The notes under the pieces: model-generated | The model's input: the letters and a program-made list of their open reading frames with translations, nothing else | What the model was told of the DNA's origin: nothing | Databases searched by the model: none | Made by a program: the position numbers and the translations under genes | Source: an uncultured Bacilli bacterium | Lineage (GTDB): Bacteria; Bacillota_I; Bacilli_A; RF39; UBA660 | Length of the DNA stretch: 64,000 bases | Direction: 5' to 3' | Assembly (NCBI GenBank): GCA_934148535.1 | Contig: CAKPDF010000001.1 | Coordinates: 27,025-91,024, forward strand | Shown here: positions 592-64,000 of the stretch, piece after piece | How the letters are laid out: each line of letters starts with the position of its first letter | How positions within the stretch are numbered: position 1 is the first letter of the stretch

Positions 592-2622
592 CTATCTTTT
601 CTCAGCTTTAGCTATAGCCATATCTGAAATTATTTCGGCAGTCTTTTCTACTCCTAATAAATCACTATTAATACATAAATCATAATTATCAGGCATTCCC
701 CAATTTTTTCCTGTATAGTGTTTATAATGATTACTTCTTAATTTATTAATTCTTTTTATTTCTTTTAAAGCATTTTTCTTATCTATATTATAATGAGTTG
801 TTACTCTTTTTATTTTATCATCCATATCACTATAGATAAACACTTTTAAGATATTTTTTTCATCTTTTAAGATATCGTCAGCGCATCTTCCAATTATTAC
901 ACAAGAAGAAGAAGAAAGGGATTTAATTAATTTTGATTCTTCTAAATATAGATTATCTTGAGTTGTTAATCCTGCTATATTAGAACTGATATTAGCAATA
1001 TTATCTCTTTTTTGTTCGTTTGATTCAATGTAATCTAGAGATAGTCCTGTTTCTTCTGCTAATTTAACCATTATATCTTTATCATAAAATTTAATTCCTA
1101 ACTTTTGAGCTACTAGTCTACCTACATATCTTCCACCAGATCCATATTCTCTTGCTATAGTTATAATAATTTTATTTTTTAAGATATTAGATTCTTTTAT
1201 ATCTTCTGATAAAGCTGTAATATTTACTTCTTTCTTATTTAGATTTTTATTTTCTGTAATTAATAATATTACTGATATTATAAATGCTAAGCCATCTGCT
1301 ATAGGCCCTGCATATAGTACTCCTTTTACTCCAATAATACTACTCATTATAATCATTGCAGGTATTAAGAATAGAATTTGTCTTGATAGTGATAAGAATG
1401 CACTCTTTCCACTTTTTCCTATTGCTTGGAAGAATATTCCCGATACTATTTGAACTGAGTTACATATAGTTAATAAAAGCATTATTCTAAATGTTAAACA
1501 AGCAAATTCATTATATAAATCATTACCAGATCCAAATATTGAAATTAATGGTTCTGGTATAGTTTGGAAAAGAATAAACGCTACTAAACCTACAAATAGA
1601 CTTACTTTTATTACATATTTTAGTGTTTCCTTTACTCTTTTATAATTACTAGCGCCATAATTATAACCAATAATTGGTTGGCTTCCAGCGGCAATGCCAA
1701 TAATTATACTATTTAATATTTGATTTATTTTCATTACTATTCCTATTACTGTTATAGGAATTTCTGTTCCATATTTTGAATAAACACCATATTTAGCAAG
1801 CATATTATTTTGTACTGCTATTACTATAACTATTGACATTTGAGTAATAAAGCTTGATATTCCTAACATTGCTATATTCTTAGTGATATTTAAATTAAAT
1901 TTATAATCTTTCTTTGTTAGAGTAATTGATTTAAATTTTCTTAAATATGCTATATTCATTATAAATGTTACTATTTGACTTATTACAGTTGCTATTGCAG
2001 CACCTTTTACTTGCATATGAAATACAAATATAAATATTGGATCTAATATTATATTTAATATTGCTCCTGTTACCATTGATGTCATAGCGTATTTAGGACT
2101 TCCATCTGCTCTTATTATTGAATTTAATGTTGTACCTATCATTACAAATGGTAATCCTAATGCTATTACATATCCATATTCTAAGGCAAATTTCTTTAAG
2201 GCTTTTGTACAACCAAAAAGATATATTAATTTTGGTAGAAATATTAAACATATTATACATAATAACAAAGATACAATTACTGATGATATAATACCGTTAC
2301 ATACTCCTTTTTTGGCTTCATCTTTTTTCTTTTCTCCTAATTTCAAACTTAGATAAGCACTTGTTCCATCTCCTAGCATTAAAGCAAATGCTAAGGCTAC
2401 TACTGTTATTGGGAATATTATATTAGTAGCACCATTACCTAAATATCCTACTCCCCATCCTATATATATTTGGTCTACTATATTATATAAGGCATTTACT
2501 ACTAAAGATATTATACAGGGAATAGAAAATTTTTTCATTAAGGTTTTGATATTTTCATATCCTAAGATATTTTCTTCTTTTTTCATTATTTCACTCCTTT
2601 TCTTTTTGAGATAAAAAGACAA
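592..2622 (-). CDS. MATE-family efflux transporter fused to a C-terminal cytidylate-kinase-like (Cytidylate_kin2) domain
   Basis: The N-terminal ~460 aa is polytopic with MATE-like motifs (NIVDQIYIGWGVGYLGNGATNIIFPI). The C-terminal ~200 aa (IIITIAREYGSGGRYVGRLVAQKLGIKFYDKDIMVKLAEETG...) matches cytidylate-kinase-like family proteins. It is one uninterrupted ORF. Confidence 0.55.
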   Translation of the reverse strand: MSFYLKKKRSEIMKKEENILGYENIKTLMKKFSIPCIISLVVNALYNIVDQIYIGWGVGYLGNGATNIIFPITVVALAFALMLGDGTSAYLSLKLGEKKKDEAKKGVCNGIISSVIVSLLLCIICLIFLPKLIYLFGCTKALKKFALEYGYVIALGLPFVMIGTTLNSIIRADGSPKYAMTSMVTGAILNIILDPIFIFVFHMQVKGAAIATVISQIVTFIMNIAYLRKFKSITLTKKDYKFNLNITKNIAMLGISSFITQMSIVIVIAVQNNMLAKYGVYSKYGTEIPITVIGIVMKINQILNSIIIGIAAGSQPIIGYNYGASNYKRVKETLKYVIKVSLFVGLVAFILFQTIPEPLISIFGSGNDLYNEFACLTFRIMLLLTICNSVQIVSGIFFQAIGKSGKSAFLSLSRQILFLIPAMIIMSSIIGVKGVLYAGPIADGLAFIISVILLITENKNLNKKEVNITALSEDIKESNILKNKIIITIAREYGSGGRYVGRLVAQKLGIKFYDKDIMVKLAEETGLSLDYIESNEQKRDNIANISSNIAGLTTQDNLYLEESKLIKSLSSSSCVIIGRCADDILKDEKNILKVFIYSDMDDKIKRVTTHYNIDKKNALKEIKRINKLRSNHYKHYTGKNWGMPDNYDLCINSDLLGVEKTAEIISDMAIAKAEKR

Positions 2623-7228: not shown

Positions 7229-7693
7229 CTAATTAATATAAACTAAAGTATTATTATCATTATCTTTATATACACCTAACATCTCTATAACAATATTCTT
7301 TATCTCATTTTTGTCTTCTAATTTTTCTATTTCTTTATCATATTTTTCTATCTTTTCATTTAACTTATTATCTAAAGAATAATACTCACTAACAATAACT
7401 TCTCCCTCATAAGTACTTTTAATCTTATCTATATTATTTTTATTTTCAGTAATACCAATAATAGCCTTATACAAACCATCATCTTCATAATAAACATAGT
7501 TATTAACACTAGTATTACTAACCATACTATCATAAGTAGAATATGCTCCTGCTTGAATTAAATATATTTTAGTATCATTTAAAGATTTAGATGCACTATC
7601 AACATAAATGCTACATACTAACTTACCACAAATACTTCCACATATAATTGCTAAAAAAATAGGTATAATACCACGTTTGATCTTACTTATCAT
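7229..7693 (-). CDS. membrane-anchored protein with a SPOR-like domain
   Basis: N-terminal TM helix, then IYLIQAGAYSTYDSMVSN...YVYYEDDGLYKAIIGI, which resembles the SPOR repeat consensus (Y.VQ.GAF...G....DG.YRV.VG). Confidence 0.35.
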   Translation of the reverse strand: MISKIKRGIIPIFLAIICGSICGKLVCSIYVDSASKSLNDTKIYLIQAGAYSTYDSMVSNTSVNNYVYYEDDGLYKAIIGITENKNNIDKIKSTYEGEVIVSEYYSLDNKLNEKIEKYDKEIEKLEDKNEIKNIVIEMLGVYKDNDNNTLVYIN

Positions 7694-7745
7694 AATATCA
7701 CCAAACTAATAATATACCTATATAATTAAATAATTTGTCGAATTA

Positions 7746-8846
7746 TTACTTGAATTTATAATAAAATAGTAAATTTGTAGATGGTAATTCATATTTATCA
7801 CTATCTTCATTATTAATATATTTTTTTACATTTTCTTCAGATAATGCATCATTATAAACTAAAACATCCTTAACTGTAATTTTACTAAGACCATTAACAC
7901 TACCATCAGCATCTGGATTACCCCCTACAACTATTGGAGTACTGCTTTTTTTAACTTTACCAGTAAAATCTGCTTCAGCTGAATAATCATTTATATATAA
8001 CTTCATCTTTCCTTTATCATAAACTCCCACTATACTATACCAAGTGTTAGCAGTTACTTTGATTGTAGATTTAGTTTGCTTATATCCACCATCTACGTAT
8101 AATTCGTAAAATATAGTATTATTGGTTGTTTTTACTAGACCGCCACCTGCTGATTCCCAATTTCCAATTATATGTTGTTGCCCATCTGAATTTAAATCAT
8201 TAAATTTAACTTTTATCATAATAGTAATTTTATCATTAAAGTCATAATTATTTAAACCACAATTAACATAAGAATTATTTCCACTAAAAAAGGCCCCATC
8301 AGTATCAGTAGTAACATTATTCTTAAAGCCAATATTCCCTCTTTCTGAATAATCAAATACCATATTATCACTAGTAAATTCTATAGCATAAGGAATAAAT
8401 AGTTTTATACTATAATCTTCATCATTATAAATATTTGTAATTGGAATAACTATAGAAGTATACTTGCTATTAGAAGTAAAGGCCATATCTCCTATTTCTA
8501 AAGTATTACCCATATTTTTTGTATAATTATTATATGTTATATCTTTGGTAGTATTATTTATCGTCAATTTCCTTGTATAGTTTTTTAAATCGTGTTCATC
8601 CCAATAAGTAAAGGTTACTACGTTATTATCTTTTTCTACTTTAGTTAGAGTATAATTATTAATATCTTCCATTATTTTATTTGTTATAATGTTTTTATTA
8701 TTAGTAAATGTTATAGACTTGTAAATATCTTCATCAGTTCTACTAAAAGAAATAGTAAGTCTAACTAAAAAGAATGCAATTCCCATAGCAAGTACTGATG
8801 CAACAATTATCTCTACTATTAAATAACCTTTTCTATTTAATTTCAT
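7746..8846 (-). CDS. prepilin-type N-terminal cleavage/methylation-domain protein (large minor pilin/pseudopilin) with a C-terminal LamG/concanavalin-like domain
   Basis: Start reassigned to the ATG at 8846, which has an AGGTGAT RBS. Leader MKLNRKG, then YLIVEIIVASVLAMGIA (Gly at -1, Glu at +5, hydrophobic helix). The C-terminus shows a LamG-like pattern (..GKVKKSSTPIVVGGNPDADGS..). Confidence 0.5.
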   Translation of the reverse strand: MKLNRKGYLIVEIIVASVLAMGIAFFLVRLTISFSRTDEDIYKSITFTNNKNIITNKIMEDINNYTLTKVEKDNNVVTFTYWDEHDLKNYTRKLTINNTTKDITYNNYTKNMGNTLEIGDMAFTSNSKYTSIVIPITNIYNDEDYSIKLFIPYAIEFTSDNMVFDYSERGNIGFKNNVTTDTDGAFFSGNNSYVNCGLNNYDFNDKITIMIKVKFNDLNSDGQQHIIGNWESAGGGLVKTTNNTIFYELYVDGGYKQTKSTIKVTANTWYSIVGVYDKGKMKLYINDYSAEADFTGKVKKSSTPIVVGGNPDADGSVNGLSKITVKDVLVYNDALSEENVKKYINNEDSDKYELPSTNLLFYYKFK

Positions 8847-8853
8847 ATACATA

Positions 8854-9429
8854 TCACCTAATCCTATAATAACCAAAATATTGATAATCACCATTTTCTA
8901 ATTCTACAATAATAATATAATTAAATTTTTGTTTTTCTTCATCTATCTCATCTTTCTCCGCGAAATTTAAAGAAGTATTCAAATAATCAAGATAATCTTT
9001 AAATCTAACATCAAAACCAGAAACATTACTATTATCTTTATTTACTGCATTAACATTATAAGGAAATATTATTGCATTCTTTATATTATATGTATCTATT
9101 AATCCATCACAAATATTTTTTTCTATATCATTACATTTTGTTCCTTCTTCTGTCTCTTCTATTATTTTATAATTCCTAGAAGCAACCGGCTCACTATCTT
9201 GTTTTTCTATCTTTTTCAAAGCCTCGACAAATTTATCAGAAGAAACCAAATATTTATAAATACTCTCACCAGCATAGACAGCGTCTACATTATAATAATA
9301 ACTTCTTTCTGTATAAACGATATACATTTTATTAAATATAGTATAAAGTCCTACTAAAGTACCCAAAATAACAGTAGAAACAATAATAACCTCAGCCATC
9401 ATAAAACCTTTACAATTTAATTTTATCAT
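8854..9429 (-). CDS. prepilin-type pseudopilin (minor pilin-like)
   Basis: Start reassigned to the ATG at 9429 (RBS AAGGTGTG); the longer track ORF would overlap the divergent ATPase gene. Leader MIKLNCKG, then FMMAEVIIVSTVILGTLVGL (class III signal, Glu at +5). Confidence 0.5.
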   Translation of the reverse strand: MIKLNCKGFMMAEVIIVSTVILGTLVGLYTIFNKMYIVYTERSYYYNVDAVYAGESIYKYLVSSDKFVEALKKIEKQDSEPVASRNYKIIEETEEGTKCNDIEKNICDGLIDTYNIKNAIIFPYNVNAVNKDNSNVSGFDVRFKDYLDYLNTSLNFAEKDEIDEEKQKFNYIIIVELENGDYQYFGYYRIR

Positions 9430-9516
9430 ACACTTTTCACACCTTTTACTTGCTATTATAACAATATTATTATATAATATAAATAGAATAAAGTAAAGAA
9501 TAAAGAAGGGATAAAT

Positions 9517-10845
9517 ATGGATAACAATACAGAAAAAAAAGTTATAAATCCAATGGAAGCAATAAATAACAACAAACAAAGTCCTAACGATCAAAATCTA
9601 CAGCAAGAAAACATAGATACCACAAATTTCAATGCTCTTGCTAAAGAAAAAAATGATTATAACTTTGAAACAACCCCAATAGTGGATATAGTAAACGATA
9701 TATTAATAACTGCTACTAAAAAGGGAGCTAGTGATATACACTTTGATCCCGCTATTGATTGTTTAAAAGTAAGACTTAGGATAGATGGAATATTAAATAC
9801 ATATTTAAAAATTCCAAATGATGTTAAGCAAAATTTAACTGCTAGAATAAAGATTTTAGCAGGAATGAATATAACGGAAACAAGATTACCACAAGATGGT
9901 GCTATAAAAACTACTATAGATGGATTAAAGTTAGATATGCGTGTATCTACTCTACCTACTAAAAAAGGTGAAAAAATAGTTATAAGAATTATGGACTACT
10001 CTATGAGTTTACAAGGTATTGAAACATTATGTTTTAGTACTTCAAATTATAAAAAAGTATTAAAAATGATTAGTGTTCCCAACGGTATTGTTTTGGTAAC
10101 AGGCGCTACTGGTAGTGGTAAATCAACTACAGTTTATTCAATACTTCAGAGATTAAATACAGAAGAGACTAATATAATAACAGTAGAAGATCCAGTTGAA
10201 ATGGAAATGGAAGGCATTAATCAAATCCAAGTTAATAGTGAAATAGGGTTGGACTTTGCTACTGTATTAAGAAGTATTTTAAGGCAAGACCCTAATATTA
10301 TAATGATAGGCGAAATTCGTGATAGTGAAACAGCTAGAATAGCTGTAAGAGCCTCTATTACAGGTCACTTAGTATTATCTACAATACACACTAACAATTC
10401 TTTAAGTACAATAGAAAGATTATTAGATATGGATGTAGAAAGATATTTATTAGCAAGTGCTTTAGAGGGGATAATATCTCAAAAACTAGCAAGGAAATTA
10501 TGCGATAAATGTAGGAAATTAAGGCCTACTACTCAATTTGAAAAGCAATTATTTAAAATAGTATTAGGATTAGATGTTAATCAAATATATGATGCTGTTG
10601 GTTGTGAACATTGTATTGATGGATATCATGGTCGTGTTGCTATTCAAGAAGTATTATCAATTAATCAAGAAGTAAGAGATGCTATAAGTAATAATTTAAG
10701 GAAAGATGCTTTGAGAAAATTAGTATATACTAAGGATACTACAACAATGTTACAAGATGGATTATATAAAGTTTTAGCAGGATTTACAACAATGACAGAA
10801 TTATTAAAATTAGTTGAAATAGATGATTTAAATATACAAAAATAG
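9517..10845 (+). CDS. GspE/PilB/ComGA-family type IV pilus/T2SS assembly ATPase
   Basis: Walker A GATGSGKSTT, the GEIRD box, His box LVLSTIHTNN, and tetracysteine CDKC...CEHC. It has no long N-terminal GSPII_E_N domain, so it is ComGA-like in size. Confidence 0.85.
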   Translation: MDNNTEKKVINPMEAINNNKQSPNDQNLQQENIDTTNFNALAKEKNDYNFETTPIVDIVNDILITATKKGASDIHFDPAIDCLKVRLRIDGILNTYLKIPNDVKQNLTARIKILAGMNITETRLPQDGAIKTTIDGLKLDMRVSTLPTKKGEKIVIRIMDYSMSLQGIETLCFSTSNYKKVLKMISVPNGIVLVTGATGSGKSTTVYSILQRLNTEETNIITVEDPVEMEMEGINQIQVNSEIGLDFATVLRSILRQDPNIIMIGEIRDSETARIAVRASITGHLVLSTIHTNNSLSTIERLLDMDVERYLLASALEGIISQKLARKLCDKCRKLRPTTQFEKQLFKIVLGLDVNQIYDAVGCEHCIDGYHGRVAIQEVLSINQEVRDAISNNLRKDALRKLVYTKDTTTMLQDGLYKVLAGFTTMTELLKLVEIDDLNIQK

Positions 10846-10868
10846 ACTTAAGAAAAATCTTAAGTCTT

Positions 10869-12530
10869 TTAAATTTCTTGAATCACGGTAATAATCATTG
10901 GTTTGCAACCAGTTTGACTAACTAAATATTTACTTAATTCATCTCTAATAGTATTTTTAATTTTATTATATTCAATATAATTATTATGAGTATTATTCTT
11001 AATAATATTTAAACAAATATTTTTCATCTCATCTATTAGTAAAGTACTATCTTTTACATAAACAAATCCTCTTGTCAATATTTCAGGACCTGCTAAAATT
11101 TCTTTACTTTTTTTATTTATAGTAGCAGATATTATAACGATGCCATTATCGGAAAGCATTTCTCTATCTTTTAATACTACTTCTCCAACATCATCACTAG
11201 AATTTCCATCAATAGAAACAAAACCACAAGGAACTTTTTCATAATTTTCTACTAACTTACCATTTACAAATGTAATTGCATCACCATTTTCTTTAAGTAA
11301 TATATTATTATCATTTATACCAACTTTACTAGCAAGTTCTGCATTAGCGACTTGTAATCTATACTCTCCTTTTACTGGAAAATAATATTTAGGTCTCATT
11401 AAATCTATCATCATCATTAAATCTTCACTAGAAGCATGATGTGATAAGTATTTAGATGGAGGCAAACTAACAACATCTACTCCTTGTTTAGAAATATCAT
11501 CAAGTAATTTGTAATAAGTCTTTTCTCTACCTTCATAAACTGGAGTCGCTAAAAATACAGTATCATCTTCTTTTAATTTAATAAACTTATCATATCCAGA
11601 TACAATTTTCATAATATTAGAATATGGTTTTTCTCTTTCATTAGAATTAATAATTACTACATCTTTATCATTAATATTAGATAAATCACCTATAAACTTC
11701 TTATCAATATGTAAATATTTATTCTCCATAGCATCATTAATTATATTTTGTAATCTCTTACCCATGATAACTATTTTCTTATTAGTCTTTGATACTTCAT
11801 TAAATAATTCTTGTATTCTATATAAATGTGAATTCAATACATTAAAAATAATTCTTCCTTGAGCGTGTCCAAAAGTTTCTCTAATCAAATTAGAAATGCG
11901 ATGATTAGGTGCTGTATGACCACGTTTATCCGCATAAACAGATTCAGTCATTAAACATAATACTCCTTGCTTTCCAATATATGCAAGTTTACCAATATCA
12001 GTTTGATAATGTCCTCTCATCATTGCATCAAATACAAAATCAGATGCAAAGAAAATAACACCATCTTTAGTATATATAGCATAACCAAAATTATCTGGTA
12101 TTGAATGTGATAAATTTACTGGAAACACACTAATATTGCCCAAGTTTATAGTCTTATAAGCAGAAATTTCAACCAAGTTATCAGTATTTAATTTAGATGT
12201 TTCAAATTCCTTCCTAACTATATCCATAGTAAACTTAGAGGCATAAATATTAATCCCCTCTAAATCTTTAACTATATCAGATAATGCTCCAATATTTTCA
12301 TCATGCCCATGTGTTAAAAATATTCCTTTTATTCTTTTCTTATTTTCTTTTAAATATTCTATATTTGGAATTAAATAATCAATACCAAGCATTGTTTCAT
12401 CCGCATATCTAAGCCCAGCATCAATTACTAGAATATCTTTATCGACTTCAACGACATACATATTCTTTCCATTTTCATTAAGCCCTCCAAGGGCAAAAAT
12501 CTTAATTTTACTCATAAATTCTCCTTTCAT
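10869..12530 (-). CDS. rnj: ribonuclease J
   Basis: Metallo-beta-lactamase HxHxDH motif (LTHGHDEN) and RNase J architecture of ~550 aa. The true start may be the MSKIKIF Met 6 codons in. Confidence 0.9.
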   Translation of the reverse strand: MKGEFMSKIKIFALGGLNENGKNMYVVEVDKDILVIDAGLRYADETMLGIDYLIPNIEYLKENKKRIKGIFLTHGHDENIGALSDIVKDLEGINIYASKFTMDIVRKEFETSKLNTDNLVEISAYKTINLGNISVFPVNLSHSIPDNFGYAIYTKDGVIFFASDFVFDAMMRGHYQTDIGKLAYIGKQGVLCLMTESVYADKRGHTAPNHRISNLIRETFGHAQGRIIFNVLNSHLYRIQELFNEVSKTNKKIVIMGKRLQNIINDAMENKYLHIDKKFIGDLSNINDKDVVIINSNEREKPYSNIMKIVSGYDKFIKLKEDDTVFLATPVYEGREKTYYKLLDDISKQGVDVVSLPPSKYLSHHASSEDLMMMIDLMRPKYYFPVKGEYRLQVANAELASKVGINDNNILLKENGDAITFVNGKLVENYEKVPCGFVSIDGNSSDDVGEVVLKDREMLSDNGIVIISATINKKSKEILAGPEILTRGFVYVKDSTLLIDEMKNICLNIIKNNTHNNYIEYNKIKNTIRDELSKYLVSQTGCKPMIITVIQEI

Positions 12531-12593
12531 AATTTTTTATAAAGTATAAAAGACTATATAATTATAGCAAATAACCAAATAAAAAGCAAGTAT

Positions 12594-13199
12594 TTACTTG
12601 CTGTTAAGTTTTAGCATTAAAGGTTTAGTCGATATATCTTTTCTTTGGAAATTTTCTAAAAACATAAAATAATCTTTCAAAGTTCGATGATAAACTACAT
12701 CATCATTAAATACAGGAAATAATTTCATATTTTTCTTTCTAAATAATAAAAATATATCTTCATTACTTAAATTTACTAAATCTGATGAATATATAATTTT
12801 ATTTTTTTCAAATACTTCTAAAGTATCATAATCAATATTATTTAATGAATATATACTATCAGTACCATACTCTCTTATTTTATTTTGTCTTCTAATATAA
12901 TCATAGATTTTTTTCATAGATTGAATATAGATTACTTTTACTTTACTTTCATTACAACCTATAGCAATACTAATTTCAGAAGTGGTAGATCCTATGGCAC
13001 TTTCATATATTCCATAATAACATCTAATTATGTAAGTTTCTAATTCACTTAATAAGAATACTTCTCTTACTACCAAATTACATATTTCATTTAACATTTT
13101 TCTTTTAGTAAATTCATCAATACAAATACCAAACTTTATTTCTAAATCATCAAATAATTTATAAATATTTTTAAATAATTTATTACTACTAAATCGCAT
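12594..13199 (-). CDS. hypothetical protein with a sigma-70 region-4-like HTH
   Basis: The segment TSEISIAIGCNESKVKVIYIQSMKKI resembles a region 4 helix-turn-helix. Otherwise unassignable. Confidence 0.3.
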   Translation of the reverse strand: MRFSSNKLFKNIYKLFDDLEIKFGICIDEFTKRKMLNEICNLVVREVFLLSELETYIIRCYYGIYESAIGSTTSEISIAIGCNESKVKVIYIQSMKKIYDYIRRQNKIREYGTDSIYSLNNIDYDTLEVFEKNKIIYSSDLVNLSNEDIFLLFRKKNMKLFPVFNDDVVYHRTLKDYFMFLENFQRKDISTKPLMLKLNSK

Positions 13200-18402: not shown

Positions 18403-20049
18403 TTAACTTAGAACAATTCTAAATGTAGTATCTGTCTGAGGGTTACCATCATAGTATGAGGTTTTAAATATATTAGCGTCTTTTTCTGTGTTGGTAGCTC
18501 CTGCTGTTATCCATAATTGTTCTGTAGTTATGTCTGTTATTTCTTCTTGATATTGTATCCATCCTAATTGGTTGGTACTATTAAATACATCATAATATTT
18601 TGAATCTATTTCGTCTAAGAAACTTATATTATTTTTATTTGTTAACATTATTAATTCTTGGGCACCACCTGCCATATCATATACTCCATATATATTTCCT
18701 GTAGTTGATCCTACTATAGTTCTGTCAAATTCATCGGTAGGCAAACCATTTTCATCTAATTTTTGACCAATGTATGAATATTCTCCATAGTCTAAGATTT
18801 TATCTGTGTGTCCCATAGATGATCCGGTGTTATAATATGTACTGTTGTTTGCATAAACTTTTCTACAACCATTTTTAGCACCATTGCATATTCCATAAGT
18901 GCTGTTAGTTAGATATGCTACTGCACTCCATTCTGACATTTTTATAGGATGAGAATCTGTTTTTTCGTCTTGGGTATTTGCTGTGCTTTCAAATATTTTT
19001 GAAGTGTCATATGCAATTTGGGGAGTGATATAAGTTAAAGCGCTGAAATTAGGTAATATTGTTGGATTATCTGTTACTCCTGTTGTTTCAAACTTTCCTA
19101 TCCAAAATCCTGTTAATTCTTTGTCGCCTAATTTGAATGATGGATGTGTATAATAGTCATTGTTGTTGCCATCACATTTTTGATCAGTGCAAACTATTGT
19201 TCCTGTACTTTGAGTTCCTTTTTCGAATACTATATTTATTCCATTTTCTATAGCATTATAACTATAATTATTTTCATCATTTGTCTGATTTATATCCCAT
19301 ACTTGATATTTAAATCTTGGTATCCAAACTAAATATGCTGTTATATCTTCTGAATTGACTATATCTCCGTTTTCTAGTTGTTGATTTTTTTCTAGACTGT
19401 CTTTAGTTACTAGAGCAACATTAGCCCATTTTTTATTTTCATAATTGTACCATTCATAGTTATCGTTTGTGTTTGTTTTATCGGCTTTATGCCAATAGTT
19501 ATCGTTTTCATCAAAATATATTGGTATCATTGTAGATAATAGTTTTGGTACATTGGCACCGCTTGTATCTAGATTTGTGTTTGCTATATTTTTAATATTT
19601 AATGTTTTGGTTATTATTTTTTTGCCTTCTGGTATTATTAGAGCTCCACCATTTATGTATCCGGTTATTACAGATAGGTTTACCGTTATAGTATTATCTG
19701 TATCATTATTTATTATTATTGATACTATTTTATTAGTTTTACCTTCTATTGTATCTTCTGCTTTATTTTGGCTTGTATCAGAGATACCTATATTTAATTC
19801 TGTTTCTGTACTATAAGCAATTGCATAATTTAATGGCTTTTCATATGGATTATTTACATTTATATCTATTGTTTTTGTTTCTTTTGAGGATATTTTTATT
19901 TCTTGTGATTTAGTACTATCTAATATAAAATTGTAGTCTGCTTGATTATCATTGTTGCCATTATCTATTAGAGCAAATGTTGTATATAAACTTGCTACTA
20001 CTACCATTATAATCAATAGCATTAATAGCATTATTCTGTTTTTTTTCAT
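18403..20049 (-). CDS. secreted protein with a SipW-cognate-like signal peptide, a TasA/camelysin-like N-domain and a C-terminal FGE/SUMF1-like domain
   Basis: N-terminus MKKNRIMLLMLLIIMVVVASLYTTFALIDN (compare GGTFAFFSD / GGTWAAFND of SipW substrates). C-terminal motifs GFWIGKFETT, HPIKMSEWSAVAY and GVYDMAGGAQE resemble FGE-sulfatase domain motifs. Several Cys pairs. Confidence 0.5.
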   Translation of the reverse strand: MKKNRIMLLMLLIIMVVVASLYTTFALIDNGNNDNQADYNFILDSTKSQEIKISSKETKTIDINVNNPYEKPLNYAIAYSTETELNIGISDTSQNKAEDTIEGKTNKIVSIIINNDTDNTITVNLSVITGYINGGALIIPEGKKIITKTLNIKNIANTNLDTSGANVPKLLSTMIPIYFDENDNYWHKADKTNTNDNYEWYNYENKKWANVALVTKDSLEKNQQLENGDIVNSEDITAYLVWIPRFKYQVWDINQTNDENNYSYNAIENGINIVFEKGTQSTGTIVCTDQKCDGNNNDYYTHPSFKLGDKELTGFWIGKFETTGVTDNPTILPNFSALTYITPQIAYDTSKIFESTANTQDEKTDSHPIKMSEWSAVAYLTNSTYGICNGAKNGCRKVYANNSTYYNTGSSMGHTDKILDYGEYSYIGQKLDENGLPTDEFDRTIVGSTTGNIYGVYDMAGGAQELIMLTNKNNISFLDEIDSKYYDVFNSTNQLGWIQYQEEITDITTEQLWITAGATNTEKDANIFKTSYYDGNPQTDTTFRIVLS

Positions 20050-20065
20050 GGCTATATCCTCCTTT

Positions 20066-21292
20066 TTATTTTAATATATATGGGGTATCTTGAGTTCCGT
20101 TTCCTTTTATTATATAATTTTCTTCTTTTAATACTATTACTGGTCTTACTTCTAAGTTTGTAGTTGCATCATTATCTATTTTAATACTACCATCTTCTGT
20201 TATTGACATAGTGTATAGATTATTGTTTATATCGTTTAATGTCAATAATAATGTGCCTGGTTTAGTCATCCATGATGTGTTGCAAGTATTTTCTTCTTTA
20301 CAATAAAGTGTGTTTATATAATCTGTAATACTTGGTAATGAGATATTAGTTTCGAAAGTATTTGTAATAGTTATTTGTGATTCTTTGAAATTTTCTTTAT
20401 TTTCTATAGATGTTGTTTCATTATTTACTGTTTGCATATCTAATAGTGATATTGTTTCTTTTGTTAATCCTGTATTAGTGAAATTACATTCTTTTTCAAG
20501 ATTATCTTGATAGCAAGTTCCTTTTGCACTTTTATAATATAATTCATTTAATAAATTGTTTATTTTAGAGTTTTGATAATACTTTAGATTATTATCATAT
20601 TGGTAATTACCTATACTGTTTTCTTTAATTAATTTTAACTTATTGTTATATACTCCTATTATTTGCCACATTTCTTGGTTTATTATTATATGATTATTTG
20701 GATTTGCTCCGTAGTATAATAAGTTTTTATTTTTATCATAGTATAATTCAGTGCTATCTTCTGTATATAGATTAGTAATAAACTCTGCTGCAGTTTGATT
20801 TCTTATGTCTTTTCTTTCAATTTCTTCTGATACCAATATTCTATTTCCATTGATATTTAGCGATGTATCTTCTGATGTTGCTACTCCTAATTTTATTGTA
20901 GCTTTTTTTTGTGAATTATTTATTATTACTATTGTTATATTTCTTGTTTCATTATTGTTAATTATATCTACAGTTGGATATTTTGAGTCATCTAATTTAT
21001 ATGCATATATATCATTGTTATTTGTATTTATTTTTTCTATCCATACTCCATAATATAGTGATGTATTTTGACTATTTGTTAAATTTATACTTAATATTTT
21101 ATAATTATTTGGTTCTACTGTAGTTATTTGATATTCTTCTATACTAGTATCTACTGAGATAGATGTGTCTATTGATACTATATTGTTTGTATCTATTTCT
21201 GCTTCAAACATTGCATATGTGGAATATATGGCTAGACTGAATAAACTTACTACTATTAATAGCATTAAATAACTTTGTTTAAATTTACTCAT
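20066..21292 (-). CDS. secreted protein, paralogous N-domain to the downstream gene, SipW-cognate-like signal peptide
   Basis: N-terminus MSKFKQSYLMLLIVVSLFSLAIYSTYAMFEAE. Region NITIVIINNSQKKATIKLGVATS is similar to NKIVSIIINNDTDNTITVNLSVITG of the neighbour. RBS AGAGGTGGA. Confidence 0.45.
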   Translation of the reverse strand: MSKFKQSYLMLLIVVSLFSLAIYSTYAMFEAEIDTNNIVSIDTSISVDTSIEEYQITTVEPNNYKILSINLTNSQNTSLYYGVWIEKINTNNNDIYAYKLDDSKYPTVDIINNNETRNITIVIINNSQKKATIKLGVATSEDTSLNINGNRILVSEEIERKDIRNQTAAEFITNLYTEDSTELYYDKNKNLLYYGANPNNHIIINQEMWQIIGVYNNKLKLIKENSIGNYQYDNNLKYYQNSKINNLLNELYYKSAKGTCYQDNLEKECNFTNTGLTKETISLLDMQTVNNETTSIENKENFKESQITITNTFETNISLPSITDYINTLYCKEENTCNTSWMTKPGTLLLTLNDINNNLYTMSITEDGSIKIDNDATTNLEVRPVIVLKEENYIIKGNGTQDTPYILK

Positions 21293-22630: not shown

Positions 22631-24709
22631 TTAATAATAATTTTTCTTTTTTAGATTTTCTATTATTCTTCCATCTTCAATTTTAATAACTTGATTATAT
22701 AAATCCATATTTTCTGTTCTATGTGATGTTACTATTATGGTTTTATTAGGATATTTATTAAAAATATTTTTTAATATTCTTCTTTCTAGGTTGATATCCA
22801 TTTCATTTAATCCTTCATCTATGATCAAAATATTTGATGGTTTTAGCAATGATCTTGCTAAAATTATTTTTTGTTTTTGTCCTCCTGAAATGTTTGCTCC
22901 ATTTTCTTCAATAAGCGTATCATATCCTAAGTATAATTCAGATACAATATCATTTACGTAAGTTAATTTGCAAATTTCATTAAAATCTTTACTGTTAATA
23001 TTTCTATTTAGTATTATGTTGTTTTTTATTGTATCTGTATATATAATTTCATTTTGAGAAATATATGTTATTTCTTTTCTAATATTACTAATTGGAATTT
23101 TATTTAAGTCATGATTCCCATATGTAATACAATTGTCTTTTATTTTATAATATTTACATAATATTTTTAATAATGTACTTTTACCAGAGCCAGTTGAACC
23201 TAAAACAAGTACTTTGGAATTATTTGTAATAGTTAAGTTTAAGTTGTTTAATACTTTTTTATTGGGATAGTTAAAAGATAAATTTTTTATTACTATATTT
23301 CCATTAATACTAATTTTATCTTCTTTTGTTAAATTTTCTGTTTCTACTTCAAATATGTTATTGGCTCTTTTTAGAGCATTTATTGCATAGTAATAATTTT
23401 TATTCAGATCAATTATATTTTTTATAGGATTTATAAAATATACCAAAAGTGCATTAAATGTTATTATCTTTTCTAGTTTTATTTGATTGTTTTGTAACAT
23501 TAGAAAGCCAATATAATTAATTATTATTATTCCTAATGCTGTTATAAATTCTTTTAAAAATAATTCAATATTATTCAAGTTTTCCGTTTCTGTGACAATT
23601 TTTGTTAATTTATTATATTTTTTTTGAAATATTTTATATCTATTACTTTCCAAATTTAATCCTTTAATTGTTTCAAATCCTGAAATTGATTCTACTAAGT
23701 AAGAGTTAACTTTAGAATTTTGTTCTTGAACTAGATTTATTCTTTTCTTTGCTAGTGGTTTAAATATATTGAAAATTACAATGTAGTTCAAAATAATTAT
23801 TATTAAAATTATAAACATTTTGGAACTAGTATTATATAATATTATTCCAGATGATATAGAAATAATTGCATCTAATAGTACAGTGAGTATTATTTGATTT
23901 AACATTATTTTTATATATGTTAAATCATTAATTCTTGATAAAATATCACCAGTTGTTTTATTTTTATAATAATTATAAGGAAGTAAAAGTGTTTTTTGGA
24001 AAGCTTTTGTTATTAGAGAGCAATCTATTTTTTGATCTAATTTTATTACTAATCTATTTCTTATGTAATTTGATAAGCATTTTATTGTAATTATTATTGT
24101 AAATATTAAGGTTATGACTTTTAAATTTTTGGCATTTATTCCATATTTTATTAAAATTTCTAAATAATAAGCATATATACAAGAAACAGCAGTAAATATT
24201 ATTGAAAATATTATGATATTTATAACAAAGATTTTATTTGATTTTATTATTTTCAATATTACTTGATTCAAGTAATTTGGTACTTTTATATTTGGTAATT
24301 TTCGATATGGACTAAATTCCATTATATTTCCAGTCCAAATTTTTATGAAATCTTTTATACTTAGATTTAATCTGCCTATAGATGGGTCCATTATTTCTAC
24401 TTTTTTATTTGATATTCTGTATATTACTACAAAATGCAATAAGCCATCATTATCTGTCTGACATAATAATGGAGGACTTAGATTATTTATGTCTTCTATT
24501 TTTGATAGATAATATGCTTTTGTAGATAACCCTATTCTATTTGCTGCTACACTAATATTATAAAAATTAGTACCATTAATAGTTGTAGATGTCATTTTTT
24601 CTAATTCATTTAATGGATAATTTCCTTTATGGTATTTTATTATTGATAATAAGCATGCAGCTCCGCAGCTTTTATTATTTGTTTGCAATACAATTAAATT
24701 TTTTTTCAT
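22631..24709 (-). CDS. bacteriocin/peptide ABC exporter with an N-terminal C39 peptidase domain (LagD/ComA/SunT family)
   Basis: C39 motifs QTNNKSCGAACLLSII and LLHFVVIY, a six-TM ABC exporter domain, Walker A GSTGSGKST, and signature LSGGQKQKIILARSL. RBS GAGGAGG. Confidence 0.9.
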   Translation of the reverse strand: MKKNLIVLQTNNKSCGAACLLSIIKYHKGNYPLNELEKMTSTTINGTNFYNISVAANRIGLSTKAYYLSKIEDINNLSPPLLCQTDNDGLLHFVVIYRISNKKVEIMDPSIGRLNLSIKDFIKIWTGNIMEFSPYRKLPNIKVPNYLNQVILKIIKSNKIFVINIIIFSIIFTAVSCIYAYYLEILIKYGINAKNLKVITLIFTIIITIKCLSNYIRNRLVIKLDQKIDCSLITKAFQKTLLLPYNYYKNKTTGDILSRINDLTYIKIMLNQIILTVLLDAIISISSGIILYNTSSKMFIILIIIILNYIVIFNIFKPLAKKRINLVQEQNSKVNSYLVESISGFETIKGLNLESNRYKIFQKKYNKLTKIVTETENLNNIELFLKEFITALGIIIINYIGFLMLQNNQIKLEKIITFNALLVYFINPIKNIIDLNKNYYYAINALKRANNIFEVETENLTKEDKISINGNIVIKNLSFNYPNKKVLNNLNLTITNNSKVLVLGSTGSGKSTLLKILCKYYKIKDNCITYGNHDLNKIPISNIRKEITYISQNEIIYTDTIKNNIILNRNINSKDFNEICKLTYVNDIVSELYLGYDTLIEENGANISGGQKQKIILARSLLKPSNILIIDEGLNEMDINLERRILKNIFNKYPNKTIIVTSHRTENMDLYNQVIKIEDGRIIENLKKKNYY

Positions 24710-24850: not shown

Positions 24851-24926
24851 TGGTGCCGAAAGCAGGATTTGAACCCGCGACCTACGCGTTACGAGTGCGT
24901 TGCTCTACCAACTAAGCTATTTCGGC
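24851..24926 (-). tRNA. tRNA-Thr (anticodon CGT)
   Basis: Cloverleaf GCCGAAA...CTCGTAA (anticodon loop)...GGTTCAAATCC...TTTCGGCACCA, with encoded CCA. Confidence 0.85.
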
Positions 24927-27892: not shown

Positions 27893-27976
27893 TGGTGCGA
27901 GTGAAGGGACTTGAACCCCCACGGATAAACCACTAGATCCTAAGTCTAGCGCGTCTGCCAATTTCGCCACACTCGC
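27893..27976 (-). tRNA. tRNA-Leu (anticodon TAG)
   Basis: 84-nt class II tRNA with a long variable arm, anticodon loop CTTAGGA, and 3' CACTCGCACCA. Confidence 0.85.
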
Positions 27977-27982
27977 ACATTA

Positions 27983-28059
27983 TGGTGGACCCTATAGGAC
28001 TCGAACCTATGACCGCCCGGTTATGAGCCGGATGCTCTAACCAACTGAGCTAAGGGTCC
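27983..28059 (-). tRNA. tRNA-Met (anticodon CAT; elongator or Ile2-lysidine type)
   Basis: GGACCCTTAGCTCAGTTGGTTAGAGC...CTCATAA...GGTTCGAGTCC...GGGTCCACCA. G1-C72 pairing, so not initiator-like. Confidence 0.8.
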
Positions 28060-29069: not shown

Positions 29070-29192
29070 ATTTTTACCTCCTTATTTTCATATTGGATTT
29101 AAGACTCGCCTTTAAGGTAGATATAATCTTTTTTTACCTTTTCAGTGCGGTTGAGTTAACAACTCGAGGTTCTTAAAAACATATAAATTTTA
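29070..29192 (-). promoter_or_regulatory. candidate L21 leader / 5' UTR of the rplU-prp-rpmA operon
   Basis: 123-nt untranslated gap with GC-containing stem elements (CCTCGAGTTG...CAACCGCACTG) upstream of rplU. This is the position of the Firmicutes L21 leader. Not verified structurally. Confidence 0.3.
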
Positions 29193-37017: not shown

Positions 37018-37536
37018 ATGAATAATTATAATTATGGATATATGAGATACTCAGATGATATTTATAATGATAATTTTAATGATGTAAATTATCAATCAGA
37101 TGAGAGAGTCAATTATATGCCTAACATTGATAACTATAAGATTCAATTTATGAATTCTAATACACAAAATACTACTTTGAATAAGCAAGATAATATACTA
37201 GATCCTTATCAAGGATTTATAAGAGGAAATATGTTTTCTAACTTATATGATGGATATAAGAATTATAAAATTTATAATGTTAATTCTACTAATGAGAGAG
37301 AAAATTTACTTAATCAGTGGCAACAATATAATTTTGCTTTAGTAGATTTAAATTTATATTTGGATACTCATCCAAATGATACAAATGCTATAAAATTATA
37401 TAATAATTACAATAATATTTTAAAACAAATATCTAAAAAATATGAAAGTATGTATGGTCCATTAACTGTAAATAGTGATAACAATCAAAATAGTTGGATT
37501 TGGATTAATAGTCCTTGGCCTTGGGAGGAGATTTAA
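37018..37536 (+). CDS. cotJAB: CotJA-like / CotJB-like fused spore coat protein
   Basis: N-part LDPYQGFIRGNMFSNLYDGY (CotJA-like). C-part QWQQYNFALVDLNLYLDTHPNDTNAIKLYNNYN (CotJB: VDFVLVELTLYLDTHPDD). Immediately followed by cotJC. Confidence 0.5.
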   Translation: MNNYNYGYMRYSDDIYNDNFNDVNYQSDERVNYMPNIDNYKIQFMNSNTQNTTLNKQDNILDPYQGFIRGNMFSNLYDGYKNYKIYNVNSTNERENLLNQWQQYNFALVDLNLYLDTHPNDTNAIKLYNNYNNILKQISKKYESMYGPLTVNSDNNQNSWIWINSPWPWEEI

Positions 37537-37537
37537 G

Positions 37538-38098
37538 ATGTTTAAATATGTTAAGAGTTTAGAATATCCAATTAATATAAAAAAGAAAGATTTGAGAATG
37601 GCTAAATATCTAATTACTCAATATGGAGGTGCAAATGGCGAGCTTGCTGCTGCTTGTAGGTATTTAAATCAAAGATTTACTATGCCTGATGATAAAGGAA
37701 AGGCACTTCTTACTGATATTGGTACTGAGGAACTTGCTCATATTGAGATGATTTCTGCTATGGTATATCAACTAATGAAAGATGCTACTTTGGAGGAAAT
37801 AAAACAGGCTGGTTTGGAGTCTAATTACGCTGAACATGGAAAAGACTTATTCCCAACAGATTCTAATGGTGTACCTTTTACAGCATCATATTTTGCCGCG
37901 GTTGGTGATCCTATTGCTGATTTAGTTGAGGATATGGCAGCAGAGCAAAAGGCTAGAGCAATATATGAAAATTTAATTGACTTGACTAATGATCCTGATG
38001 TTATTGGACCTTTACTATTTTTAAGACAAAGAGAGGTAATTCATTTTCAAAGATTTAAAGAATTGTATGAGGAATATTTAAAAAAAGGATATAAATAA
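37538..38098 (+). CDS. cotJC: spore coat protein CotJC (Mn-catalase family)
   Basis: AKYLITQYGGANGELAAACRYLNQRFTMPD...LLTDIGTEELAHIEMI is a close match to the CotJC consensus. Start taken at MFKYV after the cotJAB stop, with a GGGAGGAG RBS. Confidence 0.85.
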   Translation: MFKYVKSLEYPINIKKKDLRMAKYLITQYGGANGELAAACRYLNQRFTMPDDKGKALLTDIGTEELAHIEMISAMVYQLMKDATLEEIKQAGLESNYAEHGKDLFPTDSNGVPFTASYFAAVGDPIADLVEDMAAEQKARAIYENLIDLTNDPDVIGPLLFLRQREVIHFQRFKELYEEYLKKGYK

Positions 38099-56060: not shown

Positions 56061-56137
56061 TGGGACGGATGGTGGGAATCGAACCCACGTATGTTGGAAC
56101 CACAATCCAATGTGTTAACCACTTCACCACATCCGCC
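56061..56137 (-). tRNA. tRNA-His (anticodon GTG)
   Basis: Anticodon stem-loop TTGGA-TTGTGGT-TCCAA. Encoded G-1 pairs with discriminator C73 (GGCGGATG...CATCCGTCCCA), a His-specific hallmark. Confidence 0.85.
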
Positions 56138-61877: not shown

Positions 61878-62768
61878 TTATTCGATAATCAATTGTTCTA
61901 ATATTAGTTCTACGTTGTAGGTTTCTAATACTTTTTGTTTAATTAGTTCAATAAGTTCTATTATTTCACTACCTTTAGCATTACCTGTATTTACTATAAA
62001 ATTAGCGTGTTTATCACTAATCATTGCGTCACCTATTTTATAACCTTTTAATCCACATTTTTCTATTAATTCACCGGCATACATTCCTTCAGGATTTCTG
62101 AATACGCTTCCTGCTGAAGGAAATTCTAATGGTTGATTTTCTATTCTTTTAATTCTTCTTTTACTTATTAAATCTTCTATTTCTTTAGCGTCTCCTAAAG
62201 ATAGTTCTAATGTGGCTTCTACTATAAAATAATTAGGATTTTGTTTTATAAATGAATCTCTATATGAAAAGTTTAATTCTTCTTTGGTAAGGGTTATTAT
62301 TTCTAGATTTGGATTTATTACTTTTACTTCTTTTACTATATCTGACATAGAACTTTTATAAGCTCCAGCATTCATAGCAATAGAGGCTCCAATAAGTCCT
62401 GGAATACCACTAGCAAATTCAAATCCGGCAATGGATCTTTTCATACATTCTATTGCTAATTTTACTAATGAGTATCCTGCTTCTACTTCTATAGTGGTGT
62501 CATTAAATACTACTTTATTTAATCTATCTAATTTAATTATTACTCCATCATATTCATCATTTTTAAAAATAATATTACTACCATTACCTAAAACTAAGTA
62601 TTTGATATTGTTTTCTTTTAAAAAATTTAAAAGAAGGACTAATGTTCCTAGATCGTCTGGGAATACTACATATTTGCAAGTTACATCTAATTTGTAAGTA
62701 TTGTACTTTTTCAATGAAACATTTTCATAGAATTCAATGTTGTGTGCTTTAATAAAATTTTTTATCAT
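61878..62768 (-). CDS. murB: UDP-N-acetylenolpyruvoylglucosamine reductase
   Basis: FAD-binding domain and MurB C-terminal domain. Typical ~300 aa. Confidence 0.9.
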   Translation of the reverse strand: MIKNFIKAHNIEFYENVSLKKYNTYKLDVTCKYVVFPDDLGTLVLLLNFLKENNIKYLVLGNGSNIIFKNDEYDGVIIKLDRLNKVVFNDTTIEVEAGYSLVKLAIECMKRSIAGFEFASGIPGLIGASIAMNAGAYKSSMSDIVKEVKVINPNLEIITLTKEELNFSYRDSFIKQNPNYFIVEATLELSLGDAKEIEDLISKRRIKRIENQPLEFPSAGSVFRNPEGMYAGELIEKCGLKGYKIGDAMISDKHANFIVNTGNAKGSEIIELIELIKQKVLETYNVELILEQLIIE

Positions 62769-63843
62769 CCATTATCATTTCCTTTAATATCTCGTAGATT
62801 CTACTTGATGAGTCTTTGACTGCTAATTTTTTTAAGTTATTTTTAATTTCATTATATTTCTTTTTATCTTCTAAAAGATTATCTATAGTAGTTATTAAGT
62901 TATTTTTACTTAGTTTATCTTCTTCTATAATTAAGGCTGCATTTTTTGATACTAAATCCATAGCATTTTTATATTGATGATTATTAGTTACATATGGACT
63001 TGGTATAAAGATTGAAGGTACTCCTAGTGCCATTATTTCACTCATTGTAGAGGCTCCAGCACGAGTTACCATTACATCAGTTTTTTTCATTAGGGATGGC
63101 ATTTCATAGATAAATGGTAATACATGAACGTTATCTGGAAATCTTTTATTTTTAACTTTTTCGTAGTATGAATTTCCTGTTACAAATACTACTTCATATG
63201 GTTTATTTCTAAATCCATATACATATTCTACCATTTTCTCATTTACAGTATTACTTCCTAAAGAACCCATTACAATAAGTACTAATTTTTTATCATCCGA
63301 TAATTTAAAATCTGCTTTATTAGCAGGTTTTATAGCTATAGCTTTCTCGCTACAAGGGTTTCCTGTTAATACTACTTTTTCTTTAGGAAAATCATTTAGT
63401 GTACTTTCAAAACTTACTCCTATTTTGTCAGCATATTTTGATAAATATTTATTAGATAATCCTACTACAGAATTTTGCTCATGAATAAATGTTTTTTTAC
63501 CTAATTTCTTTCCAGCCCAAATAACTGGAGCGGTTACATATCCTCCGGTTCCAATTACTACATCGGGATTAAATTCTGCTATTACTTTCTTACATTCTTT
63601 TCTTGCATGCAAAAAATTTGTTAGGGTTTTTATATTTTCTAGAGTTAGTTTTCTTTTGAATCCTGTTACTTCTAGTCCAACATAAGGAATATCAAATTCA
63701 GGAATTAAATCTTTTTCCATTCTATTATTTGTTCCTATATATAAAAATTCACTATTTGGTTCTTCTTTTTTTATTTTACTTATTATTGCTAAGGCAGGAT
63801 AGATATGTCCTCCTGTTCCACCAGCACTTACTACTACACGCAT
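62749..63843 (-). CDS. murG: UDP-N-acetylglucosamine--N-acetylmuramyl-(pentapeptide) pyrophosphoryl-undecaprenol N-acetylglucosamine transferase
   Basis: SAGGTGGHIYPALA N-terminal motif and GT28 architecture. Confidence 0.9.
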   Translation of the reverse strand: MRVVVSAGGTGGHIYPALAIISKIKKEEPNSEFLYIGTNNRMEKDLIPEFDIPYVGLEVTGFKRKLTLENIKTLTNFLHARKECKKVIAEFNPDVVIGTGGYVTAPVIWAGKKLGKKTFIHEQNSVVGLSNKYLSKYADKIGVSFESTLNDFPKEKVVLTGNPCSEKAIAIKPANKADFKLSDDKKLVLIVMGSLGSNTVNEKMVEYVYGFRNKPYEVVFVTGNSYYEKVKNKRFPDNVHVLPFIYEMPSLMKKTDVMVTRAGASTMSEIMALGVPSIFIPSPYVTNNHQYKNAMDLVSKNAALIIEEDKLSKNNLITTIDNLLEDKKKYNEIKNNLKKLAVKDSSSRIYEILKEMIMDDKKFY

Positions 63844-64000
63844 CTTATCACCTCAGTACATTATATTATAACACTTTTTTGTATATTTGTAAGTAATATC
63901 TATTTAATTATATTATTTAACTAGAAAATTAAGAATATCTGTAAAGTTTATTTTGGATATTAATATTAATATTGCTGCCATGGATAGAAATGGTCCAAAT

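Follow-up and report, generated by a model that had tools for sequence, protein, structure and literature searches.

The stretch of contig CAKPDF010000001.1 analysed here (64,000 nucleotides in all, hereafter the window) carries a group of four genes resembling part of a type IV pilus. A pilB-like gene on the plus strand (9517-10845) encodes a type IV filament extension ATPase of 442 amino acids (aa). Divergent from it, on the minus strand, lie two genes with prepilin-like N-termini and a third gene encoding a conserved bitopic membrane protein of 154 aa (7229-7693). We labelled the two prepilin-like genes PIL1 (8854-9429, 191 aa, resembling a minor pilin) and PIL2 (7746-8846 including the stop codon, 366 aa). 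We interpret the locus as one piece of a type IV pilus whose genes are dispersed and whose tip bears a modular lectin pilin, and put the probability of this interpretation at roughly 0.7.

The three minus-strand genes appear as a compact operon. The PIL1 stop is 7 nt before the PIL2 start, the PIL2 stop is 52 nt before the 154-aa gene, and no terminator-like site was found between the three genes. Hairpin sites of the terminator type numbered two, against 0.6 expected. One of them, a bidirectional intrinsic-terminator-like hairpin with a 10-bp stem (10844-10867, both strands), is situated between the converging pilB and RNase J genes, closes pilB and implies that this gene is monocistronic. 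The AT-rich intergenic region between the PIL1 and pilB starts (9430-9516, 87 bp) presumably holds back-to-back promoters. Sigma-70-like matches were present on both of its strands, at a level not above the AT-rich background, and no Rfam riboswitch or leader element was matched at the module. The start of PIL1 was placed at the ATG at 9429, which is preceded by a Shine-Dalgarno-like sequence and was chosen by gene callers on 23 metagenome contigs. The mechanically called open reading frame (ORF) begins at a TTG (8854-9594) and overruns the ATPase start at 9517, and the earlier reading of this DNA from its letters (the sequence-only reading) was therefore right to shorten it.

Both N-termini have the layout of a type IV prepilin (class III) signal peptide. 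PIL1 begins with an 8-residue basic leader, MIKLNCKG, which is followed by FMMAE at the head of FMMAEVIIVSTVILG, and PIL2 with a 7-residue basic leader, MKLNRKG, followed by YLIVE at the head of YLIVEIIVASVLAMG. In each case there is a glycine at position -1 and a glutamate at +5, with hydrophobic residues following. When all six frames of the 64 kb were scanned by regular expression for a glycine and a glutamate separated by four residues (G-x4-E) together with a hydrophobic stretch, only these two sites were recovered. The motif KG/FM[ML]AEV (a slash marks the predicted cleavage site) was kept in all 26 of the 26 PIL1 orthologues, with Gly-1 and Glu+5 (E13) invariant. Likewise, G7, Y8 and E12 of PIL2 were invariant in 34 relatives from genomes and in 76 diverse representatives, at an overall identity among the PIL relatives of only 25-40%. 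The canonical pilins of the same clade (GFTL[IV]E, 114-171 aa) have the same MKLNxKG leader, and the N-termini of PIL1 and PIL2 align in register with them (hhalign probability 94%). These observations point to PIL1 and PIL2 being type IV prepilins, which would be cleaved, N-methylated and incorporated into a filament.

The predicted structures are consistent with this. The AF2 model of PIL1 (predicted local distance difference test, pLDDT, 81) has an N-terminal helix (residues 7-45) followed by an alpha/beta domain. In the model of PIL2 (pLDDT 75.5), a helix (5-64) and a beta-sheet (66-152) are followed by a disordered or low-confidence linker (about 154-181) and a beta-sandwich (185-363), an outline that looks like a pilin lollipop fold joined to a LamG sandwich. 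The first two elements make up the pilin module (residues 1-155; 8382-8846, minus strand), while the linker, a LamG/concanavalin-A-like lectin module and the stop codon occupy 7746-8381 on the same strand. Residues 189-340 (nt 7827-8282) matched PF13385 (Laminin_G_3) with an E-value of 7.9e-15, and also TS_C (9.3e-5). With Foldseek, the sandwich matched the lectin domain of trans-sialidases, laminin G and the receptor-binding (Hc) fragment of botulinum neurotoxin, with E-values down to 3e-9. PIL1 had no Pfam match. A profile search of the PIL2 pilin module against PDB sequences gave no meaningful match, and the top 50 Foldseek matches of the whole PIL2 model were to lectin domains only.

PIL2 thus corresponds to a modular pilin as defined by Raynaud et al. 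2021, in which a linker connects an N-terminal pilin module to a domain that is not peculiar to pili, here Laminin_G_3. The design is known from PilB and PilC of Streptococcus sanguinis (PMC8179133, PMC9934059), and a pilin combined with PF13385 is among the 15 commonest modular pilin architectures (PMC8179133). What the relatives add is variety in the C-terminal part. A HMMER search of 1.84 billion representatives (50% clustering) recovered 465 proteins with the PIL2 pilin module at E <= 1e-3, between 90 and 808 aa in length. In almost every one of the 150 members listed, the matched segment starts where the protein itself starts. Pfam matches on 76 long members included Flg_new (Listeria-Bacteroides repeats), the glycine-rich ALK_LTK_GRD, DUF285, LRR, fn3, Gal-bind_lectin (galectin-type) and pAdhesive_10 (a putative adhesin) as well as Laminin_G_3, and at least eight module types besides Laminin_G_3 are carried by the family. 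Close relatives join a near-identical pilin module to unrelated C-termini. Conversely, a canonical N_methyl pilin (P0019) carries this LamG module as well, down to its LLFYYKF ending. Because the same pilin module bears such varied C-termini, we regard PIL2 as a carrier pilin for interchangeable adhesin modules, and these modules are shuffled across the clade.

Similar cargo was also seen on proteins of another kind. Two large secreted proteins of 548 and 408 aa are encoded in the window at 18403-21292 (minus strand). They have SipW/TasA-like N-termini (...SLYTTFA and ...IYSTYAMFEAE) and are not prepilins; NCBIfam gave no confirmation of this signal type for either protein. Similar proteins were found in related loci (L032, 10534-14273; L020, 3717-5543; L017, 11863-12948), and their passenger domains have homologues among the C-terminal modules that PIL2-family pilins carry in relatives. 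Over 646 alignment columns, the 548-aa protein shares 30% identity with the PIL2 pilin of L008, and the 408-aa protein matches P0016 (E = 7e-21). It seems that the same cargo is displayed by two routes, one on pilins and one of the SipW/TasA type.

The ATPase matched PF00437 over residues 52-430 (E = 1.3e-122). It consists of the N2 and C-terminal ATPase domains and lacks the N1/MshEN domain. Walker A (at 196), Walker B (at 261) and the His box (at 282) are all present, and the four cysteines of the zinc motif (C329, C332, C363 and C366) are invariant in 14 orthologues. The best PDB match was GspE of Vibrio (4pht, 5.5e-100), followed by PilF of Thermus and PilB of Myxococcus and Geobacter. The N2 and C-terminal domains align with these proteins end to end at E-values of about 1e-100, and the same Walker, His-box and tetracysteine zinc motifs are shared. 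Unlike them, the window ATPase has no N1/MshEN domain, is 442 aa long against 500-900 aa for the PDB matches, and falls below the NCBIfam cut-offs, with 482.7 bits against 630 for GspE (TIGR02533) and 469 against 676 for PilB (TIGR02538). The shortfall in these two scores is explained by the missing N-terminal domains. Homologues numbered more than 8000, and the best 120 were all at least 74% identical. The named sources among the matches were of the type "GspE/PulE family protein" from Bacilli or Erysipelotrichaceae metagenome-assembled genomes (MAGs). A sporulation ATPase of the SpoIIIAA type was rejected, since no such family appeared in the list of NCBIfam matches and the protein is PilB/GspE-like from end to end. 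The main components recognised in the sequence-only reading, namely two tandem minus-strand genes with the leaders, Gly-1 and Glu+5 given above, a LamG fold on the larger product and a divergent GspE/PilB-type ATPase with a tetracysteine motif, were all confirmed, and in the positions given. For the lectin and the ATPase the confirmation included the profile hidden Markov model (HMM) matches to PF13385 and PF00437 reported above; for the lectin, also the AF2 and Foldseek results.

The sequence-only reading had called the module an orphan and a possibly minimal or novel system, guessing at the same time that its remaining parts lay elsewhere. The guess was correct and the label was not. Nucleotides 63913-64000 (minus strand), the 88 nt with which the window closes, hold the final 28 codons and the stop of pilD, a prepilin peptidase gene truncated at this point. 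This tail translates to FGPFLSMAAILILISKINFTDILNFLVK followed by the stop, which is the C-terminus of a 255-aa protein with A24_N_bact and Peptidase_A24 domains on L043 and L044. The L044 contig measures 213 kb, and its 11,252-nt overlap with the window shows 100% identity. A 10-kb walk past the window end found pilC and pilD directly upstream of murG (62749-63843). If the numbering is continued past the window, pilC (460 aa) falls just beyond its end, at about 64695-66077. Hence the pair lies 53 kb from pilB on the same contig, straddling the window end. Walking off the other end, before position 1, gave nothing related to the pilus. PilD is intact, with a GGGDIK motif and two CxxC motifs, and so is PilC, which matched PF00482 (T2SSF) and scored 286 bits as GspF and 275 as PilC. 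The earlier statement that no platform protein, prepilin peptidase or major pilin was nearby accordingly holds for pilC and the major pilin within the window and fails for the peptidase.

A phmmer search, both with HofC, GspF and GspO of E. coli and with PilC and PilD from the clade itself, detected no PilC or A24 peptidase in the window and 33 related loci (L001 and L007-L038, 587 kb), where six-frame segments of at least 50 aa were searched. The 28-residue pilD fragment was missed for this reason, and it was invisible in the ORF list because ORFs running off the end are omitted from it. A metagenome scan with PilC showed that the pilC-pilD pair is conserved in the relatives it recovered. In one of these loci, L062 (Ga0137297_10332), the parts stand together within 7 kb: pilC and pilD are followed by two small ORFs, then by pilB in the opposite orientation, a PIL1-like gene (G/FVLTE) and a PIL2-like gene (G/FTAVE). 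This clustering, together with the shared contig, argues that the pilB/PIL locus and pilC-pilD belong to one system, and it refutes the orphan label. In L070, from a distant organism, the genes form a classical co-oriented operon. The L062 ATPase (11309-12907) is extended at its C-terminus by about 100 residues rich in Pro and Gln. A 184-aa Gly/Asn-rich protein with GGASRMAGG repeats is encoded just past the window end (7106-7660 of L043/L044, minus strand in the locus). It stands divergently upstream of pilC in most of the pilC loci recovered that extend that far, and it had no family match.

The arrangement around pilB is itself conserved. One genome per species was scanned with a profile of the PIL2 pilin module, which gave 32 loci whose ORFs were clustered; the best match was 63% identical, and the window's own species was not among the matches. 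Almost all loci came from MAGs of uncultured gut Bacilli, from Clostridium sp. CAG:762 or from Firmicutes CAG:321. PIL1 and PIL2 were paired in 25 loci, and the order of an ATPase gene divergent from PIL1, PIL2 and the 154-aa gene was found in about 14 species. As this divergent layout recurs in relatives, it is a conserved feature rather than an accident of one genome. Canonical pilin genes were present within 10 kb of the module in 8 loci, and in L032 directly upstream of PIL1. In L036 (7-5038) the two families alternate in tandem as PIL2-PIL1-PIL2-PIL1-PIL2, in the manner of an adhesin cassette, which suggests that PIL1 and PIL2 form cognate pairs. In L013 a third pilin-like gene (9093-9974; G/FAITATIYG, with no Glu5) is inserted between PIL1 and PIL2, and recalls the tip subunits GspK and ComGG, which also lack Glu5. 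Four contigs with the module (L007, L018, L022 and L034) were filed under MAGs of Oribacterium, Muribaculaceae and Paludibacteraceae, and are probably mis-binned.

Several results weigh against a type IV pilus with a lectin tip. The N_methyl models (PF07963/TIGR02532) did not match full-length PIL1 or PIL2 at E <= 1 in Pfam and NCBIfam, the isolated N-termini of 44-47 residues had no Pfam N_methyl match even at E <= 10, and none of the 76 PIL2-family members had one at E <= 1e-3. PIL1 had no profile match in the PDB and no Foldseek match better than E = 0.65. The ATPase and PilC are below every NCBIfam equivalog cut-off. In the 84 kb formed by the window and 10 kb on either side there was no major pilin, PilT or PilM/N/O, and PilT and PilM/N/O were also not found in the 587 kb of related loci. 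Finally, the system is known here from sequences and models, and the tip location and glycan binding are drawn from analogy. The sequence-only reading had been prepared to give up the pilin assignment if the N-termini did not score as prepilin domains. Neither pilin did score, but the failure is in our view outweighed by the invariant motif, by the leader shared with the canonical pilins of the clade and by the predicted, pilin-like fold.

The working of such a pilus can be proposed as follows. PIL1 and PIL2 would be made as prepilins with their basic leaders of 7-8 residues, and PilD, encoded beside pilC and murG, would cut them after Gly-1. A hexameric PilB-like ATPase would drive the PilC platform, so that pilins are lifted from the membrane into the filament, whose body would be a canonical major pilin encoded elsewhere. 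The putative cognate pair PIL1-PIL2 would prime assembly and come to cap the filament. At the tip, the LamG lectin of PIL2 could bind glycans of host mucin, of the diet or of other microbes, and the swapping of adhesin modules on the PIL2 carrier across the clade would then alter binding specificity. What the sequences show directly are the genes, their motifs, conservation and synteny, the predicted folds and the location of pilC and pilD on the same contig; cleavage, filament assembly, the pairing, the tip location, glycan binding and any role of the 154-aa protein are inferred.

Among known systems, the PilA-PilC tip complex of S. sanguinis comes closest: its modular pilin PilC, which has the lectin, is bound and stabilised by PilA, a small minor pilin (PMC9934059). 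Both hosts are monoderm, and both systems have a gene for a small minor pilin beside that of a large modular one. In PilC and PIL2 alike, a linker joins a short pilin module to a lectin module of the concanavalin-A type, the leaders in both systems have 7-8 residues ending in Gly with Glu at +5, and a tip-located adhesin complex is proposed for both. There are also clear differences. The S. sanguinis pilins carry the N_methyl signature IPR012902 (PMC8179133), whereas the Pfam and NCBIfam counterparts of that signature miss PIL1 and PIL2. Neither PIL1 nor the PIL2 pilin module has a detectable sequence match to solved pilins or a Foldseek pilin match, PIL2 has no Ig-like spacer module, and the window locus has the 154-aa membrane protein in addition. 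The pil genes of S. sanguinis form one contiguous locus, while here pilB and the minor pilin genes diverge, and 53 kb lie between pilB and pilC-pilD.

The 154-aa protein has an N-terminal transmembrane segment, a middle domain with a probable beta-alpha-beta-beta-alpha-beta order and a C-terminal helical region. Its gene directly follows PIL2 in the window and in 12 related loci, with a non-adjacent copy in L025, and the orthologues aligned are 38-62% identical. No Pfam, NCBIfam or PDB relative was found. It had been described as SPOR-like, which the HMM searches did not support: the window protein had no match to SPOR (PF05036), and one orthologue scored 12.6 bits against a cut-off of 21, over 19 residues and out of register. 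The protein may be an accessory assembly factor. A bolder possibility, which we consider doubtful, is that PIL1, PIL2, the 154-aa protein and the short PilB constitute a distinct monoderm type IV filament subtype of this uncultured gut Bacilli clade. The marks of such a subtype could be two families of tip pilins unseen by current pilin HMMs and a plug-and-play PIL2 whose cargo is exchanged between strains and occurs also on SipW/TasA-type proteins. The 154-aa protein could then be a new component of the machinery, for example one that aids the pilus across the thick cell wall.

A diverged competence pseudopilus of the Com type, used for DNA uptake, would account for some of the same genes. 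The ATPase would then be ComGA, PilC would be ComGB, PilD would be ComC, and PIL1 and PIL2 would stand in place of ComGD-GG. The host is monoderm and Bacilli-related, and Com systems are present in Erysipelotrichia (PMC7212644, PMC12786226). The machinery looks very simple, with no PilT or PilMNO seen near any part, as in Com systems, which likewise comprise a minimal set of ATPase, platform, peptidase and pilins (comGA-GG and comC), the peptidase gene being apart from the pilin genes (PMC7212644, PMC12786226). The ATPase lacks N1 and fits the ComGA model over its full length (positions 2-265 of 267) with 269 bits. Moreover, a gene judged ComEC-like by eye is located about 5 kb upstream of pilC in L062. 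However, the scores argue otherwise: the ATPase reaches 268.8 bits against the ComGA cut-off of 300, and PilC 128.1 against 240 for ComGB, far below what the same protein scores as GspF or PilC. The gene order differs from comGABCDEFG, which is kept by cultured Erysipelotrichales (PMC12786226), and there is no co-oriented operon of the comG type, in agreement with the sequence-only reading on this point though not with its suggestion of a competence-type system. The window ATPase also has a conserved tetracysteine, and its minor pilins bear adhesin modules, both unlike the Com pilus. The cargo of PIL2, which differs from strain to strain and includes lectin, LRR and other adhesin modules, fits adhesion and not DNA uptake. 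The canonical pilins of the clade, at 114-171 aa, are longer than ComGC-type pilins, which also counts against a Com system. On balance we consider a competence function unlikely.

It is very improbable that PIL1 and PIL2 are not pilins at all, but N-terminally anchored surface proteins with a coincidental Gly and Glu, the ATPase serving some other system. The missing N_methyl matches, the lack of a PDB pilin match for either N-terminal module and of any Foldseek match for PIL1, and the occurrence of PIL2-type passenger domains behind SipW/TasA-like N-termini would all agree with such anchors. A charged glutamate inside a plain membrane anchor would not be expected to stay conserved, whereas Gly-1 and Glu+5 are invariant in diverged relatives, and bona fide pilins of this clade have an identical leader. 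The genes are also linked to pilB in about 14 species and to pilC-pilD in L062, and the model of PIL2 suggests a pilin fold. Least credible of all is a decaying, non-working remnant of a once-contiguous pilus operon, which the scattered genes and the lack of a major pilin within 84 kb might suggest, since all ORFs are intact (including pilC and pilD with its GGGDIK and CxxC motifs), the ATPase is 64-91% identical across related loci with invariant catalytic and zinc motifs, and the module is kept in about 14 species and in identical copies on at least 23 metagenome contigs.

These identical copies of the region came from human-gut metagenomes of Hadza and other cohorts, on contigs of up to 220 kb. 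The window has a G+C content of about 25%. CotJB/CotJC-like spore-coat genes were read by eye at 37018-38098 (plus strand), a collagen-repeat protein of the BclA_C exosporium type is encoded just upstream of the window (L041, 12470-13600), and sigma-F, SpoVA and SASP genes were read by eye in related loci. The host is apparently an uncultured, low-GC gut bacterium of the Bacilli, Erysipelotrichales-like, and in view of these spore-coat, exosporium-type and sporulation genes it appears to be spore-forming. Elsewhere in the window, a gene at 592-2622 (minus strand) was called as a 664-aa product that joins a MatE-family transporter to a cytidylate-kinase-like domain at its C-terminus (PF01554 and PF13189). 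A 692-aa ABC transporter (22631-24709, minus strand) has an N-terminal segment that by eye resembles a C39 peptidase, as in bacteriocin and peptide exporters. The only Rfam matches in the window were four tRNA genes (within 24854-24926, 27896-28059 and 56064-56136) and a ribosomal protein L21 leader (29092-29162, minus strand) upstream of rplU-ysxB-rpmA.

Modular pilins with the PF13385 architecture are already known, and the pilus as a whole is neither an orphan nor a novel system: it is a machine of a known kind whose genes are scattered. A pilus ATPase that seems to be an orphan can simply mean that the genes are dispersed past the window examined. Two sizeable pilin families escape the standard N_methyl signatures, and surveys based on IPR012902/PF07963 will for this reason undercount pilins and modular pilins. 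Among abundant uncultured Bacilli of the human and animal gut, adhesive type IV pili tipped with modular lectins appear widespread, while experimental knowledge of lectin-tip pili so far comes from one oral streptococcus. Such pili would be prime candidates for attachment to mucin and other glycans and for niche specificity at the level of strains.

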